Part shown: piece after piece, positions 1-6,383 of the stretch
Layout: each line of letters begins with the position of its first letter
Numbering within the stretch: position 1 is the first letter of the stretch
Assembly: GCF_022846255.1 (NCBI RefSeq)
Contig: NZ_AP025682.1
Reading direction: 5' to 3' (one strand)
DNA: 64,000 nt
Origin: Escherichia coli
Lineage (GTDB): Bacteria; Pseudomonadota; Gammaproteobacteria; Enterobacterales; Enterobacteriaceae
The notes under the pieces: generated by a model
The model's input: the letters and a program-made list of their open reading frames with translations, nothing else
Databases searched by the model: none
Told to the model about the DNA's origin: nothing
Translations under genes and position numbers: made by a program

Positions 1-519
1 GACGTTGTTCGACGCCGACGTCCAACGCCTCGGCACCCGCACTGAAGACAATCGTCACCATGGCTTCGGCTTGCGCTTCAGTAAACGCACGCGGCATATG
101 GTTTTCGAGTTCCAGATAGTCCGCAAGTTCCGCAATGAAGTGCTGAATTTCACGCGCAACGGCGGCACGAAACGCAGCGGAGGTGCCGGAGCGTTCCCGC
201 AATAATAACCGGAAGGCGTTAGGATTATTACCGATGAACTCCATAAATGTGGAGACCGAGGTGCGGATCACACTCCCGCCTTTGGCGATACGCTGACGCG
301 CCTGGCGCATGAGTTGGCGTAGCATTAAACCGCTCTCATCAACCATGGTCAGACCCAGTTCGTCTACGTCGCGGAAATGCCGATAAAAAGAGGTGGGAGC
401 AATGCCCGCTTCACGCGCCACTTCACGCAAACTCAGGCTGGCGAAGCTGCGTTCAGCACTTAATTGGCTAAATGCGGCTTCCACCAGCGAACGGCGGGTT
501 TTTTCTTTTTGTTGCGCTC
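1..519 (-). CDS. fabR: FabR, TetR-family repressor of unsaturated fatty-acid synthesis; 5' part only, 3' end runs off the window start
   Basis: Reverse-strand translation from ~519 reads [29 protein letters not shown]...[12 protein letters not shown], recognised as E. coli FabR; not in ORF track because truncated; divergent from sthA as in E. coli. Confidence 0.85.
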
Positions 520-863
520 TTACGCCCATCACGATGTCTGAATCCTTGCCAAAAGTACTGCTGGCACTATACCAGAGAATGAACATACTGGATTGCTCCA
601 GTATTGTGAATGAACGGTAACGCAATAAAACATATTTACTGCAATTCTTTGGCCGGTTCTTTTACGTACAACGGAAACCTGCCGCTTAAACGGAGAGTAT
701 CGTCGATAAAAATCCAATAAAACGTTCAGGTCAAAAGTAAGAAACAGACAAAGCAAAGGCCGCTCACGATATAGCCAGATAAATGACGGGGATCAATTGG
801 CTTACCCGCGATAAAATGTTACTATTCTGTTGCTTTTATGTATAAGAACAGGTAAGCCCTACC

Positions 864-2264
864 ATGCCACATTCCTACGATTACGATGCCATAGTAATAG
901 GTTCCGGCCCCGGCGGCGAAGGCGCTGCAATGGGCCTGGTTAAGCAAGGTGCGCGCGTCGCAGTTATCGAGCGTTATCAAAATGTTGGCGGCGGTTGCAC
1001 CCACTGGGGTACCATCCCGTCGAAAGCTCTCCGTCACGCCGTCAGCCGCATTATAGAATTTAATCAAAACCCACTATACAGCGACCATTCCCGACTGCTC
1101 CGCTCTTCTTTTGCCGATATCCTTAACCATGCCGATAACGTGATTAATCAACAAACACGTATGCGTCAGGGATTTTACGAACGTAATCATTGTGAAATAT
1201 TGCAGGGGAACGCCCGCTTTGTTGACGATCACACGCTGGCGCTGGACTGCCCGGACGGCACGGTAGAAACGCTAACTGCAGAAAAATTTGTTATTGCCTG
1301 CGGCTCTCGTCCATATCATCCAACAGATGTTGATTTCACCCATCCACGCATTTACGACAGCGACTCAATTCTTAGCATGCACCACGAACCGCGCCATGTA
1401 CTTATCTATGGTGCTGGAGTTATCGGCTGTGAATATGCGTCGATCTTCCGCGGTATGGATGTAAAAGTGGATCTGATCAACACCCGCGATCGGCTGTTGG
1501 CGTTTCTCGATCAAGAGATGTCAGATTCTCTCTCCTATCACTTCTGGAACAGTGGCGTAGTGATTCGTCACAACGAAGAGTACGAGAAGATCGAAGGCTG
1601 TGACGACGGTGTGATCATGCATCTGAAGTCAGGTAAAAAACTGAAAGCTGACTGTCTGCTCTATGCCAACGGCCGCACCGGTAATACCGATTCGCTGGCG
1701 TTACAGAACATTGGGCTGGAAACTGACAGTCGCGGACAGCTGAAGGTCAACAGCATGTATCAGACCGCACAGCCGCACGTTTACGCGGTGGGCGACGTGA
1801 TTGGTTATCCGAGCCTGGCGTCGGCGGCCTATGACCAGGGGCGCATTGCCGCGCAGGCGCTGGTGAAAGGTGAAGCCACCGCACATCTGATTGAAGATAT
1901 CCCTACCGGTATTTACACCATCCCGGAAATCAGCTCTGTGGGCAAAACCGAACAGCAGCTGACCGCGATGAAAGTGCCGTATGAAGTGGGCCGCGCCCAG
2001 TTCAAACATCTGGCACGCGCACAAATCGTTGGCATGAACGTGGGCACGCTGAAAATTTTGTTCCATCGGGAAACGAAAGAGATTCTGGGCATTCACTGCT
2101 TTGGCGAGCGCGCTGCCGAAATTATTCATATCGGTCAGGCGATTATGGAACAGAAAGGTGGCGGCAACACTATTGAGTACTTCGTCAACACCACCTTTAA
2201 CTACCCGACGATGGCGGAAGCCTATCGGGTAGCTGCGCTAAATGGCTTAAACCGCCTGTTTTAA
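864..2264 (+). CDS. sthA: Soluble pyridine nucleotide transhydrogenase (466 aa)
   Basis: ORF-track protein [24 protein letters not shown]... with FAD/NAD Rossmann motifs; length and synteny next to oxyR match E. coli SthA. Confidence 0.95.
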
Positions 2265-3164
2265 CACTTTATCGAAATGGCCATCCATTCTTGCGCGGAT
2301 GGCCTCTGCCAGCTGCTCATAGCGGCTGCGCAGCGGTGAGCCAGGACGATAAACCAGGCCAATCGTGCGGCGAGGTTCCGGCTTAATACACGGCAAATAA
2401 ACAACCCCATCGCGTTTGCGCTCCGGCGGCACAGCCAGCGCAGGCAGTAAAGTGATCCCGCTACCTGCCGCCACCATGTTACGCAGTGTCTCCAGGCTGG
2501 TCGCGCGGAAGTGTGTATCTTCATCCGCCCCGGCTTCAAAGCAGAAACCCATTGCCTGATCGCGCAAACAGTGACCATCTTCCAGCATCAGCAGTTTTTC
2601 CCCTGCCAGATCGGCCATCGGTACGCATTCGCGGTTCGCCCACGGGTGGTCTTCATAGATAGCCAGCAACATTGGCTCATCAAACAACGGCACTTCAATG
2701 AATGCTTCGCTCTCTTTCACCAGCGCGAGGATCACGCAATCGAGTTTGCCGCTGTCCAGTTGCGCCAGTAACTGGTGGGTCTGTGCTTCATGCAGATACA
2801 TTTCCAGCTTTGGAAAGGTCTGGTGCAGCATCGGGATAATATGCGGTAGCAGGTACGGTCCAACCGTGGGAATCAAACCAATATGCAGCGGCCCGGACAT
2901 CGTCTCGCCCTGCTGGCTTGCCATCTCTTTAAGGACTTTCACCTCACGCAGTACGGTACGCGCCTGATCCACCAGCAGCATTCCCGCCTGGGTGAACAAC
3001 ACTTTACGGCTGGTCCGCTCCAGCAACATCACGCCCAACTCATCTTCCAGCTTACGAATTTGCCCGCTAAGCGTCGGCTGGCTAACGTGGCAGGAATCTG
3101 CCGCACGCCGAAAATGGCGGTGTTCGGCCAATGCCACCAGGTACTCAAGATCACGAATATTCAT
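2247..3164 (-). CDS. oxyR: OxyR, LysR-family hydrogen-peroxide-responsive regulator (305 aa)
   Basis: ORF 2247..3209 trimmed to conserved start [22 protein letters not shown]...; 18-bp convergent overlap with sthA 3' end as in E. coli. Confidence 0.95.
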
Positions 3165-3259
3165 TATCCATCCTCCATTGCCACGATAGTTCGCGGCGAT
3201 AGGTAGCATAGCAACGAACGATTATCCCTATCAAGCATTCTGACTGATAATTGCTCACA
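3165..3259. promoter_or_regulatory. Divergent oxyR/oxyS promoter region with OxyR operator
   Basis: 95-bp spacer between oxyR start codon and oxyS 5' end; established OxyR autoregulation/oxyS activation site in E. coli; individual boxes not mapped here. Confidence 0.6.
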
Positions 3260-3374
3260 GAAACGGAGCGGCACCTCTTTTAACCCTTGAAGTCACTGCC
3301 CGTTTCGAGAGTTTCTCAACTCGAATAACTAAAGCCAACGTGAACTTTTGCGGATCTCCAGGATCCGCTTTTTT
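3260..3374 (+). ncRNA. oxyS: OxyS small regulatory RNA (109 nt plus U tail)
   Basis: Sequence GAAACGGAGCGGCACCTCTTTTAACCCTTGAAGTCACTGCCCGTTTCGAGAGTTTCTCAACTCGAATAACTAAAGCCAACGTGAACTTTTGCGGATCTCCAGGATCCGC followed by T8 (intrinsic terminator) read directly; matches remembered oxyS. Confidence 0.88.
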
Positions 3375-3415
3375 TTATTCTACAGGCCCACAGCAAGAGA
3401 GCCTGATAGTAACGG

Positions 3416-4699
3416 TTACTCAATCCGATCTTTGACAATAAAGAAGTAACACAGCGCCCCGGTGAACGTCACACAGGCCGCGATAACCAGCGCCAGATTA
3501 AACGAGTGTGTGGTATCCACGACCCAACCGGTTACGATCGGAGCAAAGGAAGCAAAAACAAAACTGCCAAAGTTTTGAATCCCGGCGATGGAAGCCACTT
3601 TTGTTTCTGACACCATCACCTGCACCAGCCCCCATGCAGATGTTCCCGCGAAATGCACGCAGAACAGCGCCATTGAGATAAACGCTACCGCCTGGGCTGG
3701 CGAGGAAGATTGCACGACCAGCAACGTGCCTAATGCCGACATCATCAAACCGCAGACAATCGCCGTTTTACGCGTCTTCGCCAGGTCATAGCCTTTTTTC
3801 GCCAGCCGATCGACAACAATACCGTTAACCCACATCCCGACCGCCGCCGCGAGGAAAGGAATTGCCGCCACCCAACCGGTTTTCGCCAGACTGAAACCTT
3901 GTTCGGCCTGCAAATAACCGGGTAACCACGCGATGTAGAGCCAACCGGTATAATTGACGCCAGAGAAACCTAAAATCATCCCCCAGGTTGTCCGATGCTT
4001 AAACAGCGCCAGCCACTCGCTAAATTGTAACTGTGGACGCGGTTTAACCGGCGCGGAGAGATATGTCCGTTCTTCCTCGGTCAGGACAAACTGCGCCCGG
4101 TTGCGATACCACGCGTACCAACAGATCCCAACCAGAATCCCTGCTACGCCGATGATGACAAACATCGTCCGCCAGCCCCATGCCAGTTGCATCAATACAA
4201 GAGCAGGAGGCGCGATAGCCTGACCGATAACGGTAGATGAGTTAAAAATCCCCAGCGCCGTGCCGCGTTCTTTTTGCGCATACCAGTCGGTGATCGACTT
4301 TACTCCCGCAGGCATAAATGGCGCTTCGCCAATACCCAGACCGATACGCATTAAAATAAAGTGGCTAAAAGAATTAACCATTCCTGTTAATGCCTGCATT
4401 AATGACCAGAATATTAAGCCTGCGCCTAACACTATTCGTGGGCCAAAGCGGTCTAGCAAAATACCGGAAGGAAGTTGTGAAAAACCATAAGACAGAGAAA
4501 ATGCAGAAAGCAAAACACCAAATTCGGTAGCGGATAATCCTAACTCACCACGAATTGCTTCACCTGCCACGCTCAATGACGAACGGTCGAGAAAATTAAC
4601 GATCCCCGCCATAAATAATAAAACCAGGGTCACTGTCTGAATACGACGAATCCGTTGCGGTTTATTACCCGCAACACTGGTTGACACATCAACGTCCAT
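3416..4699 (-). CDS. MFS transporter, anion:cation symporter (sugar-acid/hexuronate-type) family, 427 aa
   Basis: 12-TM-like hydrophobic profile, MFS signature region GxLLDRFGPR, resemblance to DgoT/ExuT/YjjL-type transporters; accessory relative to my memory of K-12 (oxyS directly followed by argH). Confidence 0.8.
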   Translation of the reverse strand: MDVDVSTSVAGNKPQRIRRIQTVTLVLLFMAGIVNFLDRSSLSVAGEAIRGELGLSATEFGVLLSAFSLSYGFSQLPSGILLDRFGPRIVLGAGLIFWSLMQALTGMVNSFSHFILMRIGLGIGEAPFMPAGVKSITDWYAQKERGTALGIFNSSTVIGQAIAPPALVLMQLAWGWRTMFVIIGVAGILVGICWYAWYRNRAQFVLTEEERTYLSAPVKPRPQLQFSEWLALFKHRTTWGMILGFSGVNYTGWLYIAWLPGYLQAEQGFSLAKTGWVAAIPFLAAAVGMWVNGIVVDRLAKKGYDLAKTRKTAIVCGLMMSALGTLLVVQSSSPAQAVAFISMALFCVHFAGTSAWGLVQVMVSETKVASIAGIQNFGSFVFASFAPIVTGWVVDTTHSFNLALVIAACVTFTGALCYFFIVKDRIE

Positions 4700-4765
4700 T
4701 TTTAGCTCCTTGAGCGGAATTAATCGATTTGATGAATATTCAGAAAATAATTAAGCGAACCGCTA

Positions 4766-5980
4766 TTACCAGTTCCACAATGTGCCATCTTCCAGTCGTG
4801 CGACGGGGAGATACGCCGGGTCATACGGATATTTCGCCGCCAGTTTCTCATCGAAAGAAATACCCAGCCCCGGTTCATCGCCTGGGTGCATATAACCTTC
4901 ATCGAAGCGCCAGCTGTGCGGGAAGACTTCAAGCATTTGTTCGGAATAGCCCATGTACTCCTGAACGCCAAAGTTTGGCACCCAGAGGTCAAAATGCAGC
5001 GCCGCCGCATGGCAAACAGGCGATAAATCTGAAGGGCCATGCGAACCGGTACGTACCTGATAAAGCGATGCAAAATCGGCAATCCGTCGCATCCCGGTAA
5101 TGCCGCCTGCATGGGTAATCGTCGTGCGAATATAGTCAATCAGCTGCTCTTCGATTAACTGTTTGCAGTCCCAGATACTGTTAAACACTTCACCGACCGC
5201 AATCGGCGTCACGGTATGCTGGCGAATCAGACGAAAACATTCCTGGTTCTCGGCAGGCGTCGGATCTTCCATCCAGAACAGGCGGTAATCCTCAATGCTC
5301 CTCCCAAAGCGCGCCGCTTCGATGGGGGTCAGGCGATGGTGCATGTCATGCAACAGATGTTCGTTAAAACCGAACTTATTACGCACCGCTTCAAATAACT
5401 TCGGCGTAAAATCGAGATACTTTTCTGAAGACCACAACTGCTCTTCTGGCCACAGGCCTTTGGTTGCTGGTTCATACGCCAGTCCTTTGCCCTTCGCCAG
5501 ACCATAGGTGGTTTGCATACCCGGTACACCACACTGCACACGAATCGCCTTAAAGCCCATCTGCTGGTGCTTTGCATAGTCTTCAAGGACTTCATCAATC
5601 GTCCGCCCGGTGGTGTGGCAATAAACCATCACGCCTTCACGAGAAGCGCCACCAAGCAGTTGATACAATGGCATATTTGCCGCTTTAGCTTTGATATCCC
5701 ACAACGCCATATCAATGGCAGAAATGGCCGACATCGTGACGGGACCACGTCGCCAGTAAGCTCCTTTATAAAAGAATTGCCAGATATCTTCGATACGGCT
5801 GGCATCGCGGCCAATTAATTGAGGACAAAGATGATCTTTCAGATAAGAAGCGACCGACAATTCGCGACCATTTAACGTGGCATCTCCTAATCCACAAAGT
5901 CCGCTTTCAGTGGTTATTTTAAGCGTAACGAAATTACGCCCGGGACAAGTAACAAAAACATCCACAGCAATAATTTTCAT
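4766..5980 (-). CDS. Enolase-superfamily D-mannonate dehydratase (ManD)/RspA-like sugar-acid dehydratase (~404 aa)
   Basis: ORF 4766..6040 trimmed to [43 protein letters not shown]...; strongly resembles E. coli RspA/ManD family; exact start uncertain (5980 vs 6040). Confidence 0.85.
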
Positions 5981-6383
5981 TATTGCAATCTCCTGTATTG
6001 TAAATAGACACTTCAAACTTAATTTTACGCCTACTACCATACAAGAGAGAAAAGGTGATTATTCAACCGTGATCACATTAAAAATAAAAATTTCTACCGA
6101 GGAGAAAAAACACCCTCAAAAACCACCTGAATAATTAGCCATTATCGTTAAAACAACACGTTAAATAATCACATAACAAACTCCATTAATCATTAAAAAT
6201 GAACACAGCAATAGAAATGAATTATATTCAATTAATTAAAGTATGTATTGGCTGATGTATTGAAAATATAATTTTTATGGGGAGAGTGAAGGTAAAGAAG
6301 ACGCAAGAATAAAAAGGAATGTGACAAATAATGGTTCTGGTTGGGCGTTAAATTTAAGGTCACCAGAATGCTGACAAATTTCT

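Follow-up and report, generated by a model that had tools for sequence, protein, structure and literature searches.

The window, that is, the whole 64,000-nucleotide stretch of the Escherichia coli contig NZ_AP025682.1 that was analyzed, carries the convergent genes sthA, coding for the soluble, Si-specific NAD(P)+ transhydrogenase, and oxyR, coding for the peroxide-sensing LysR-type regulator, together with the small RNA gene oxyS (Table 1). Both proteins were identified with NCBIfam equivalog models, SthA with NF003585 (805 bits against a cut-off of 465, aligned over residues 2-466) and OxyR with NF008361 (633 bits against a cut-off of 329, aligned over residues 1-305 of 305). As both models align to the last residues, the stops of the two genes are set by the reading frames and not by a choice of annotation. 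The mechanical list of open reading frames holds a 320-aa version of oxyR, whose ATG lies upstream of the annotated start.

Table 1. Features of the sthA/oxyR junction and its surroundings (window coordinates; K-12 coordinates and strand where published data were mapped)
Feature	Position	K-12 position	Strand	Details
sthA CDS	864..2264		+	466 aa, stop TAA 2262-2264; ORF list, translation, RefSeq homologous loci
oxyR CDS	3164..2247		-	305 aa, ATG 3164, stop TAA 2249..2247
Tail-to-tail coding overlap sthA/oxyR	2247..2264		both	18 bp, six codons in register
Hairpin I4	2279..2304		+	sthA 3' UTR, GGCCAUCC-(10 nt loop)-GGAUGGCC, -15.1 kcal/mol
Mapped sthA mRNA 3' end	2309	4159345 (-)	+	Term-seq, PMC7815308 Supplementary file 1; 45 nt past stop
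sthA-direction read-through Rho region	2639	4159015 (-)	+	~375 nt past sthA stop, antisense to oxyR
Hairpin I3	2199..2234		-	oxyR 3' UTR, core CUACCCGA...UCGGGUAG, -20.6 kcal/mol, begins 14 nt past oxyR stop
Hairpin I2	2154..2198		-	oxyR 3' UTR, AAAGGUGGUG...CGCCACCUUU plus inner stem, then CUGUUCC
oxyR-direction Rho termination region	~2145	4159509 (+)	-	DirectRNA-seq with and without bicyclomycin, PMC7815308 Supplementary file 2
Minimum zone transcribed on both strands	2145..2309		both	~165 nt, inferred from mapped ends
oxyS small RNA	3260..3369		+	Rfam RF00035, 139.5 bits; divergent from oxyR, outside overlap
oxyS intrinsic terminator	3350-3368		+	terminator scan

The shared segment holds the last five sense codons plus the stop of both genes, reading TTA AAC CGC CTG TTT TAA (L N R L F stop) on the plus strand and L K Q A V stop on the minus strand, and the TAA stop of each gene pairs base for base with a Leu codon (TTA) of the partner. 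The translated C terminus of SthA is ...ALNGLNRLF. With two real coding sequences sharing their 3' nucleotides, the pair belongs to the convergent overlapping protein-coding genes. An earlier note on this DNA had claimed an 18-bp overlap at 2247-2264 with the sthA stop inside the last codons of oxyR, and the ORF list and the translation return exactly these coordinates, the sthA TAA lying opposite the oxyR Leu codon. The arrangement was given there as that of E. coli, and the same 18 bp are indeed annotated in MG1655, 88-3493, and MS20657; the annotation of the closest complete genome shows them too. In RefSeq MG1655 (K-12), oxyR (b3961) spans 4158490-4159407 and sthA (b3962) spans 4159390-4160790, with the same orientation, the identical overlap, and the same hairpin sequences as in the window. 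Within the two genes, 59 of 2,301 positions differ between the window and K-12, and beyond oxyS the window carries an accessory MFS-manD segment that is absent from K-12.

A different stop on re-annotation would remove the overlap, as the earlier note had pointed out, but the RefSeq stops agree with ours. The chance that the overlap is an artefact of annotation or sequencing, with one of the genes truly stopping earlier, is practically nil, and this reading is already refuted by the data on frames, conservation, and structure. Both frames are homologous over their full length, which fixes the stops, the gene ends read the same across 76 species and thousands of E. coli genomes, and the crystallized OxyR construct reaches residue 305 (PDB 1I69 and 1I6A, spanning residues 87-305). 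Nothing in favor of an artefact was found at sthA/oxyR. A 314-aa OxyR with a 43-bp overlap in Pectobacterium is spurious, as oxyR is frameshifted in that record, and merely shows that such artefacts occur.

The sthA/oxyR junction was found in 5,425 of the 5,426 complete E. coli genomes. The contig scan covered the 80 closest loci, all from Enterobacteriaceae. Of 79 Enterobacteriaceae species, 76 have an overlap of 18 bp and the other three one of 27 bp, in which it arose via a TTA-to-CTG change in sthA. It is also 18 bp long in four of the six representatives of other Enterobacterales families (Erwinia, Hafnia, Serratia, and Edwardsiella), while Pectobacterium has a 9-bp overlap by homologous frame and Dickeya has none, with a 116-bp spacer between the genes and a canonical terminator behind sthA. 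The convergent adjacency itself is kept across five Enterobacterales families. The overlap is conserved in evolution and is not a strain-specific accident, and the spacer of Dickeya indicates that it is dispensable. We are highly confident that sthA and oxyR, two unrelated chromosomal genes, overlap here tail to tail in an ordinary, conserved way, an arrangement long annotated, already mapped, and already known. The overlap appears to result passively from genome compaction, with SthA dictating the sequence. LNRLF, the SthA tail, hardly varies, and the OxyR tail accepts V-to-I, A-to-T, and Q-to-K/E changes and lengthens by three residues once the Leu codon of sthA becomes CTG. Structural alignment with foreign OxyR proteins stops near residue 291, and with a distant SthA it continues through the final residue.

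The earlier note had also seen no room for an intergenic terminator, and this stands: there is no intergenic DNA at all, and no canonical terminator appears at the junction. The consensus scan for terminators and promoters over positions 600-3500 returned nothing there, with hit counts at the level of shuffled sequence, and its terminator hits were just that of oxyS plus two at chance level. A search of 2050-2700 against Rfam (E <= 1) gave no family match at the junction, and OxyS was the sole Rfam hit. Signals for 3' ends still exist, which refines the claim, in the form of conserved hairpins that sit within the coding sequence of the partner. As there is no intergenic DNA, the 3' end of each gene forms on the untranslated antisense strand of the other.

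The Term-seq end of sthA is classed as "primary sthA, antisense oxyR" and averages 78,428 reads in LB at an OD of 0.4 and 54,987 at an OD of 2.0 (PMC7815308). These 3'-end data, like the Rho data, were obtained in K-12 and not in the window strain; the mapping between K-12 and window coordinates was verified on the sequence, and hairpins I2, I3, and I4 are all identical in both. The sthA end falls 5 nt after I4, following ...GGCC UCUGC, and has no U tract. I4 is composed of the oxyR codons for E-A-I-R and M-D-G-H. Pairing holds in 97.6% of cells across 73 distinct sequences, with compensatory changes at three pairs; 0 of 500 shuffles reach the observed compensatory signal, a count that is not a probability, as the species compared are related. 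Changes from Ile to Val in this stem go with a matching GAT-to-GAC change in eight distinct sequences, and its 4-fold and 3-fold synonymous sites are almost invariant. The asymmetry between strands is small (98.8% versus 97.7%). Synonymous randomization of the single sequence, which kept the protein and followed E. coli codon usage, was marginal for I4 (p = 0.07), so the case for this hairpin rests on the cross-species data. In Pseudocitrobacter I4 is not conserved, and the hairpins seen in other families are different ones that lie at shifted positions. We propose that the sthA 3' end would be made by Rho termination deeper in oxyR, about 375 nt downstream, after which a 3'-exonuclease would trim the mRNA back to the hairpin.

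For oxyR itself, the list of PMC7815308 contains no Term-seq 3' end. The region that ends transcription in the oxyR direction is bicyclomycin sensitive, i.e., Rho dependent, with a Rho score of 5.10 (significance, 3e-16) against 5.81 (6e-31) for the region in the sthA direction (PMC7815308 Supplementary file 2). It is located 9 nt downstream of I2, or about 102 nt beyond the oxyR stop, a position that is not nucleotide accurate, as the Rho regions derive from comparisons of 800-nt windows and are not exact ends. Both scores were recomputed from the published read counts and agree, and by these scores read-through increases on Rho inhibition in both directions, as is typical of Rho-dependent terminators. 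The C:G ratio of the untranslated antisense RNA is 1.4 over 2400-2640 on the plus strand and 1.04 over 2246-2145 on the minus strand.

The two hairpins of the oxyR 3' UTR consist in turn of sthA codons. I3 is built from N-Y-P-T...Y-R-V and includes a rare Arg codon, CGG (2226-2228), whose G is kept in 78 of the 79 species. I2 is built from K-G-G...T-T-F, and both of its Thr ACC codons are invariant in all 79. On the minus strand, 99.6% of I2 cells are paired, and the core stem is paired in 99.8% against 93.7% on the plus strand, although the structures of I2 and I3 were taken from the window's own minus-strand fold, which biases the pair counts toward that strand. No double compensatory changes were seen for I2 or I3 in the species comparison.

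Folding z-scores for the region are -2.86 on the plus strand and -3.73 on the minus strand, and the oxyR 3' region is more stable than controls with randomized synonymous codons (p = 0.0015). Where only one side of a pair has changed, the G-U pairs that remain are mostly on the strand serving as 3' UTR. What the present comparison adds is the demonstration that the hairpins are conserved at synonymous sites, apparently by selection, one of them with compensatory changes. They could instead be by-products of the amino acid sequence and codon bias, the 3' ends being set only by Rho and chance structure. In line with this, the I4 region folds equally well in 7% of random synonymous variants, GCC, GGC, ATC, and ACC are preferred codons anyway, double compensatory changes are lacking in I2 and I3, and other families have different hairpins. 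We nevertheless consider by-products unlikely, as the 4-fold sites of the stems are 98 to 100% fixed while other Gly, Ala, and Thr ones in the same genes vary freely. The retention of the rare CGG codon, the matched Ile-to-Val and GAT-to-GAC changes of I4, the stability of the oxyR 3' region far beyond that of its synonymous controls, and the short distance from I4 to the mapped sthA end all argue against them as well. It is highly improbable, on the other hand, that both messages are ended at the junction by one shared bidirectional intrinsic (Rho-independent) terminator. The symmetry of the site, with an 8-bp perfect stem starting 14 nt past each stop, and the U-rich run UUUCUGUU after I2 would fit such an element, but no junction hairpin is flanked by an A tract and a U tract, the consensus scan is empty there, the sthA 3' end has no U run, read-through is bicyclomycin dependent in both directions, and the two genes use separate hairpins. 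The combination of a GC-rich stem, a short loop, and a direct U tract that defines intrinsic terminators is absent from the junction: I4 is followed by UCUGCC, and the loop region of I2 spans 35 nt, with an interrupted U run behind the hairpin.

Full-length RNA profiling has revealed bidirectional intrinsic terminators that overlap between convergent genes. They solve the same problem of ending two convergent messages in little space, but sthA/oxyR lacks the shared GC stem with A/U flanks and has three hairpins plus Rho. The sthA end is like the stem-loop-protected Rho-dependent ends described in PMC7815308, as it follows a stable hairpin without a U tract and has the bicyclomycin-sensitive region beyond it, on an antisense strand that is not translated. 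The same study counts 99 "primary and antisense" Term-seq ends in E. coli. The sthA end differs from these in that the trimming step is presumed at this locus and in that its protecting hairpin is made wholly of partner codons, seemingly held at synonymous sites.

The mapped ends at about 2145 and at 2309 imply that the sthA and oxyR messages are complementary over at least ~165 nt. The earlier claim that each transcript runs antisense into the other gene agrees with published data, namely the Term-seq end at 2309 and the Rho regions at K-12 positions 4159509 and 4159015 (PMC7815308), plus an excludon listing (PMC12288877). The 3'-end mapping that had been proposed as a check was already in print and puts the sthA end inside oxyR (PMC7815308). 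ExcludonFinder (PMC12288877) counts oxyR-sthA as one of 165 convergent "excludons" of MG1655, called in 50% or more of 58 RNA-seq data sets. Neighboring transcripts do overlap here, as judged from the published Term-seq, DirectRNA-seq, and RNA-seq with coordinates checked on the sequence, and the pair shares this trait with the other excludons listed. It differs from them in that the coding sequences themselves overlap, not the UTRs alone, and, whereas excludons involve mutually exclusive expression and RNase III processing, sthA/oxyR is known from transcript overlap alone.

A functional excludon would require that the convergent transcription, over at least 165 nt, interferes through polymerase collision or RNase III and produces reciprocal expression. 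SthA is an NADPH consumer, and the re-reduction of OxyR and its regulon depend on NADPH, a link between the two proteins that speaks for such a function, as does the adjacency kept across five Enterobacterales families. Membership of oxyR-sthA in the MG1655 "excludome" (PMC12288877) and the reach of both messages into the partner gene (PMC7815308) point the same way. We still regard a functional excludon as quite unlikely. The expression of oxyR is weak, constitutive, and autoregulated, which makes the gene an unpromising source of interference, and the spacer and canonical sthA terminator of Dickeya indicate that close coupling is dispensable. Furthermore, the criterion of ExcludonFinder is coverage overlap only (PMC12288877), and none of the papers found describes reciprocal expression, RNase III dependence, or a phenotype for oxyR-sthA. 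A literature search combining oxyR, sthA, and antisense gave nothing relevant besides the ExcludonFinder list (PMC12288877); a match to "sthAB" refers to a Salmonella fimbrial operon and not to this gene. The SMRT-Cappable-seq supplements (PMC6131387) mention neither sthA nor oxyR. We think that any regulatory effect of the complementarity is at most weak. That the hairpins and the duplex zone of at least 165 nt form a conserved module tying the level of the transhydrogenase to that of the peroxide sensor is very unlikely. In such a module, oxyR mRNA would fall when sthA is strongly transcribed, or the other way round, through collision or RNase III, and the hairpins would set how deeply each message invades the other.

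The overlap between sthA and oxyR matters little beyond bookkeeping. Editing the 3' end of sthA or oxyR, whether by deletion, insertion, or recoding, alters the protein of the other gene, so standard knock-outs or codon-optimized replacements of oxyR or sthA can remove the last codons, the stop, or the 3'-end hairpin of the partner. Near the end of either gene, synonymous positions are constrained, as the 3'-end structure of the partner's mRNA is encoded there, and this makes the sthA/oxyR ends a small, clean case of apparent selection for RNA structure inside coding sequence. Antisense regulation, if true, would connect redox sensing to NADPH balance.

The convergent genes for the soluble transhydrogenase SthA and the peroxide regulator OxyR end inside each other. 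Within their shared segment the plus strand reads TTA AAC CGC CTG TTT TAA, encoding the SthA tail L-N-R-L-F-stop, and the minus strand reads TTA AAA CAG GCG GTT TAA, encoding the OxyR tail L-K-Q-A-V-stop; the two frames are in register, so the stop codon of either gene faces a TTA (Leu) codon of the other. SthA scores 805 bits with the NCBIfam equivalog NF003585 (Si-specific NAD(P)+ transhydrogenase; cut-off 465), and OxyR scores 633 bits with NF008361 (cut-off 329), its alignment spanning positions 1-305 of a 305-position model. The stop positions thus do not depend on how the genes were annotated.

Features of the sthA/oxyR junction (window coordinates)
Feature	Position	Strand	Remarks
sthA ORF	864..2264	+	466 codons; TAA at 2262-2264 (mechanical ORF list, translation)
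oxyR ORF	3164..2247	-	305 aa annotated-length product from ATG at 3164; TAA at 2249..2247
Coding overlap sthA/oxyR	2247..2264	both	18 bp (window sequence, ORF list, translation)
I4, hairpin in sthA 3' untranslated region	2279-2304	+	14 nt from sthA stop to start; -15.1 kcal/mol
I3, hairpin in oxyR 3' untranslated region	2201-2232	-	14 nt from oxyR stop to start; -20.6 kcal/mol
I2, hairpin in oxyR 3' untranslated region	2154-2198	-	-15.6 kcal/mol

The ORF list and translation place the overlap exactly where the earlier note had put it, and the note was also right to take it for the E. coli arrangement, as RefSeq annotates the same 18 bp in K-12 MG1655 (oxyR 4158490-4159407, sthA 4159390-4160790), in strain 88-3493 and in strain MS20657, where the window's neighbouring accessory segment has a 100% match. 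The junction region is found at 95% identity or more in 5,425 of 5,426 complete E. coli genomes. The window itself is E. coli but not K-12, with 59 of 2,301 positions differing across sthA and oxyR. As to the flanks, fabR lies directly upstream of sthA in the window (1-863) and in K-12, while 88-3493 and MS20657 (comparison loci L001 and L089) have an M20 aminoacylase gene in its place, accompanied in 88-3493 by a citrate-proton symporter gene, so that this flank too varies among E. coli. On the other side, between oxyS and the site of K-12 argH, the window carries (3416-6040, minus strand) genes for a 427-aa D-galactonate-transporter-like MFS transporter and a D-mannonate dehydratase of the ManD type (732 bits with NF043051). 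This segment is absent from K-12 and 88-3493 and present in 1,859 of the 5,426 complete genomes, chromosomal every time.

Conservation was followed in a one-genome-per-species scan of the closest 80 loci, all from Enterobacteriaceae and with SthA at least 90% identical; both genes were placed by tblastn and followed to their stops, which scored 79 loci and left out one on too short a contig. The 18-bp overlap was present in 76 of the 79 loci holding both genes. The other three (Enterobacter soli, Pluralibacter gergoviae and Buttiauxella) overlap by 27 bp; there sthA has CTG in place of the Leu codon TTA, which removes the oxyR stop and makes OxyR three codons longer, up to a TAG that faces CTA, the next Leu codon of sthA. 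This Leu codon, Leu459 (window 2238-2240), is CTA, a rare codon, in 40 of the 79 species, and its reverse complement TAG is an in-frame back-up stop for OxyR, used in the three species without the primary one. In Pseudocitrobacter (L027, L032 and L037; ~3890-3956) SthA ends in NRLW instead of NRLF and the OxyR tail has a one-codon insertion, yet the overlap remains at 18 bp.

Erwinia, Hafnia, Edwardsiella and Serratia also share 18 bp, with the tails LNRLF and LKQAV. In Dickeya dianthicola the genes do not overlap: between them lies a spacer of 116 bp, AT-rich and internally repetitive (L084 3908-4023), each gene has its own diverged version of the 18 bp once shared, and sthA gains a canonical stem and U-run terminator, AACCGG...CCGGTTTTTT. 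An insertion with duplication seems to have done away with the overlap. The spacer is built of repeated TTGATTAAATCAAT(C/T)GTTTT-like units, and TTAAGCCGAC is present twice on the oxyR side. For Pectobacterium zantedeschiae (CP139172.1; L088 3365-4309) we rejected the called 314-aa OxyR and its 43-bp overlap, as the call ends in unrelated sequence after a frameshift near codon 240, either a sequencing error or a pseudogene; the homologous frame ends in ENLSK* and overlaps by 9 bp. The overlap, then, is old and usually retained, but not indispensable. Divergent from oxyR, at the position of the E. coli small RNA oxyS, Erwinia, Dickeya, Hafnia, Serratia and Edwardsiella (L083-L087, ~4940-5830) code for a peroxiredoxin-glutaredoxin hybrid of 243-244 aa with AhpC-TSA and Glutaredoxin domains.

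Constraint on the shared codons is unequal. SthA residues are near-invariant and the opposite OxyR residues vary (V to I, A to T, Q to K/E); because the third codon position faces the first position of the partner, "silent" sthA changes alter OxyR, which tolerates them. Solved structures agree with this: alignments to OxyR homologue structures from other genera reach only about residue 291 of 305, and that to the distant soluble transhydrogenase structure 9n4y extends to the last SthA residue. The sthA Leu codon supplying the oxyR stop is TTA or CTA, both rare in E. coli, in 76 of 79 species, which indicates that the stop position itself is maintained. In our reading the overlap is passive and of the compaction type: SthA sets the sequence, and the OxyR tail runs on under loose constraint.

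The claim that no intergenic room is left for a terminator holds, with zero intergenic DNA and no canonical terminator at the junction in a consensus scan (3 matches against 3.0 expected by chance), whose sole convincing match was the oxyS terminator. The 3' end mapping that the note had proposed was already published for K-12 (PMC7815308, Adams et al. 2021, supplementary tables). Coordinates were converted as K-12 = 4161654 minus window, verified by reproducing a published 61-nt string and its flanks; hairpins and mapped ends are identical in K-12 and the window. The sthA Term-seq end at 4159345 (-), window 2309, is classed "primary (sthA), antisense (oxyR)", averages 78,428 reads in LB at OD 0.4 and 54,987 at OD 2.0, and is not listed for M63 medium; it lies 45 nt past the sthA stop, within oxyR. 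Two bicyclomycin-sensitive Rho regions complete the picture, their scores agreeing with our recomputation from the published read counts. That at 4159509 (+), window 2145 (score 5.10, significance 3e-16), ends oxyR-direction transcription ~100 nt past the oxyR stop, within sthA; that at 4159015 (-), window 2639 (score 5.81, significance 6e-31), stops sthA read-through ~375 nt into antisense oxyR. Transcripts thus run antisense into the partner as the note had supposed, and at least 2145-2309 (~165 nt) is transcribed on both strands.

On the two sides of the overlap lie perfect 8-bp inverted repeats, three in all, and folding z scores are -2.86 for the sthA 3' region and -3.73 for the oxyR 3' region. 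The mapped sthA end lies 5 nt past I4 (...GGAUGGCC UCUGC) with no U tract, as expected of a Rho-terminated message trimmed to a protective stem-loop; the Term-seq paper (PMC7815308) invokes this process in general, and we infer it for this locus. The oxyR-direction Rho region lies 9 nt past I2, within CUGUUCCAU. In the I3 loop (window 2212-2222, minus strand) an inner GGC/GCC stem closes a UUCC tetraloop (UUCG in several species); at this place sthA uses GAA for Glu in 79/79 species, while other nearby Glu codons switch freely between GAA and GAG.

I4 pairs in 97.6% of cells across 73 distinct sequences, with a hypervariable loop and fixed stems. Three of its pairs have two-sided changes (10 cells), for example OxyR Ile ATC to Val GTC with a matching Asp GAT to GAC, and 0 of 500 shuffles matched the observed values, counts that are not probabilities given the relatedness of the species. 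Synonymous sites in the stem are near-invariant (C in Gly GGC 73/74, Ala GCC 74/74, Ile ATC 66/67), and nearby fourfold Gly and Ala sites outside it freely use all four or three bases. I2 and I3, with structures taken from the minus-strand fold of the window, pair in 96.1% of cells; no double changes were found in their pairs across the species alignment, variation being one-sided and preserving G-U pairs on the minus strand. Both Thr ACC codons of I2 are invariant in 79/79 species and the rare Arg CGG of I3 is kept in 78/79, and other Thr codons nearby take any of the four bases. Core Watson-Crick stem pairing is 99.8% on the minus versus 93.7% on the plus strand for I2, 96.0% versus 93.0% for I3 and 97.7% versus 98.8% for I4, each hairpin being slightly better preserved where it is 3' untranslated region. 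With synonymous codons randomised and proteins fixed, the oxyR 3' region folds at -37.6 kcal/mol against -23.1 +/- 4.5 (p = 0.0015), and the I4 region, marginally, at -15.1 against -9.0 +/- 3.7 (p = 0.07). I4 is not preserved in Pseudocitrobacter; Hafnia, Edwardsiella, Erwinia and Serratia have other stems at shifted positions past the sthA stop, and an I2-like long stem past the oxyR stop followed by the same CUGUUCCAUGAU tail. Selection on the I2, I3 and I4 structures is likely, if short of proven.

The best supported explanation is a passive, conserved coding overlap in which each message probably ends by Rho-dependent termination on the partner's antisense strand, which is untranslated, and in which hairpins made of partner codons mark, and probably stabilise, the ends. 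An annotation artefact is excluded by the full-length equivalog matches and by the recurrence of the junction in 5,425/5,426 E. coli genomes and of the 18 bp in 76/79 species. A shared bidirectional intrinsic terminator ending both messages conflicts with the absence of U and A tracts, with the bicyclomycin sensitivity and with the use of different hairpins in the two directions. ExcludonFinder independently lists oxyR-sthA among 165 convergent "excludons" (neighbouring genes with overlapping transcripts), detected in 50% or more of 58 RNA-seq sets from MG1655 (PMC12288877). That the transcript overlap is a regulatory device is less likely and has no direct support: the list takes coverage overlap as its sole criterion, a literature search found no study of the pair, and Dickeya shows that the genes are separable.

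Convergent overlaps phased so that a stop codon complements a Leu codon are an established phenomenon, as are Rho termination of antisense RNA and "primary and antisense" 3' ends. The Term-seq paper (PMC7815308) counts 99 such ends in E. coli. The finding is real, was rightly interpreted by the earlier note and was previously known, the overlap from the reference annotation, the transcript overlap from the excludon list (PMC12288877) and the 3' ends from the Term-seq tables (PMC7815308). New here are an account, for this locus, of conserved 3'-end hairpins embedded in codons, and of the unequal constraint on the SthA and OxyR tails.
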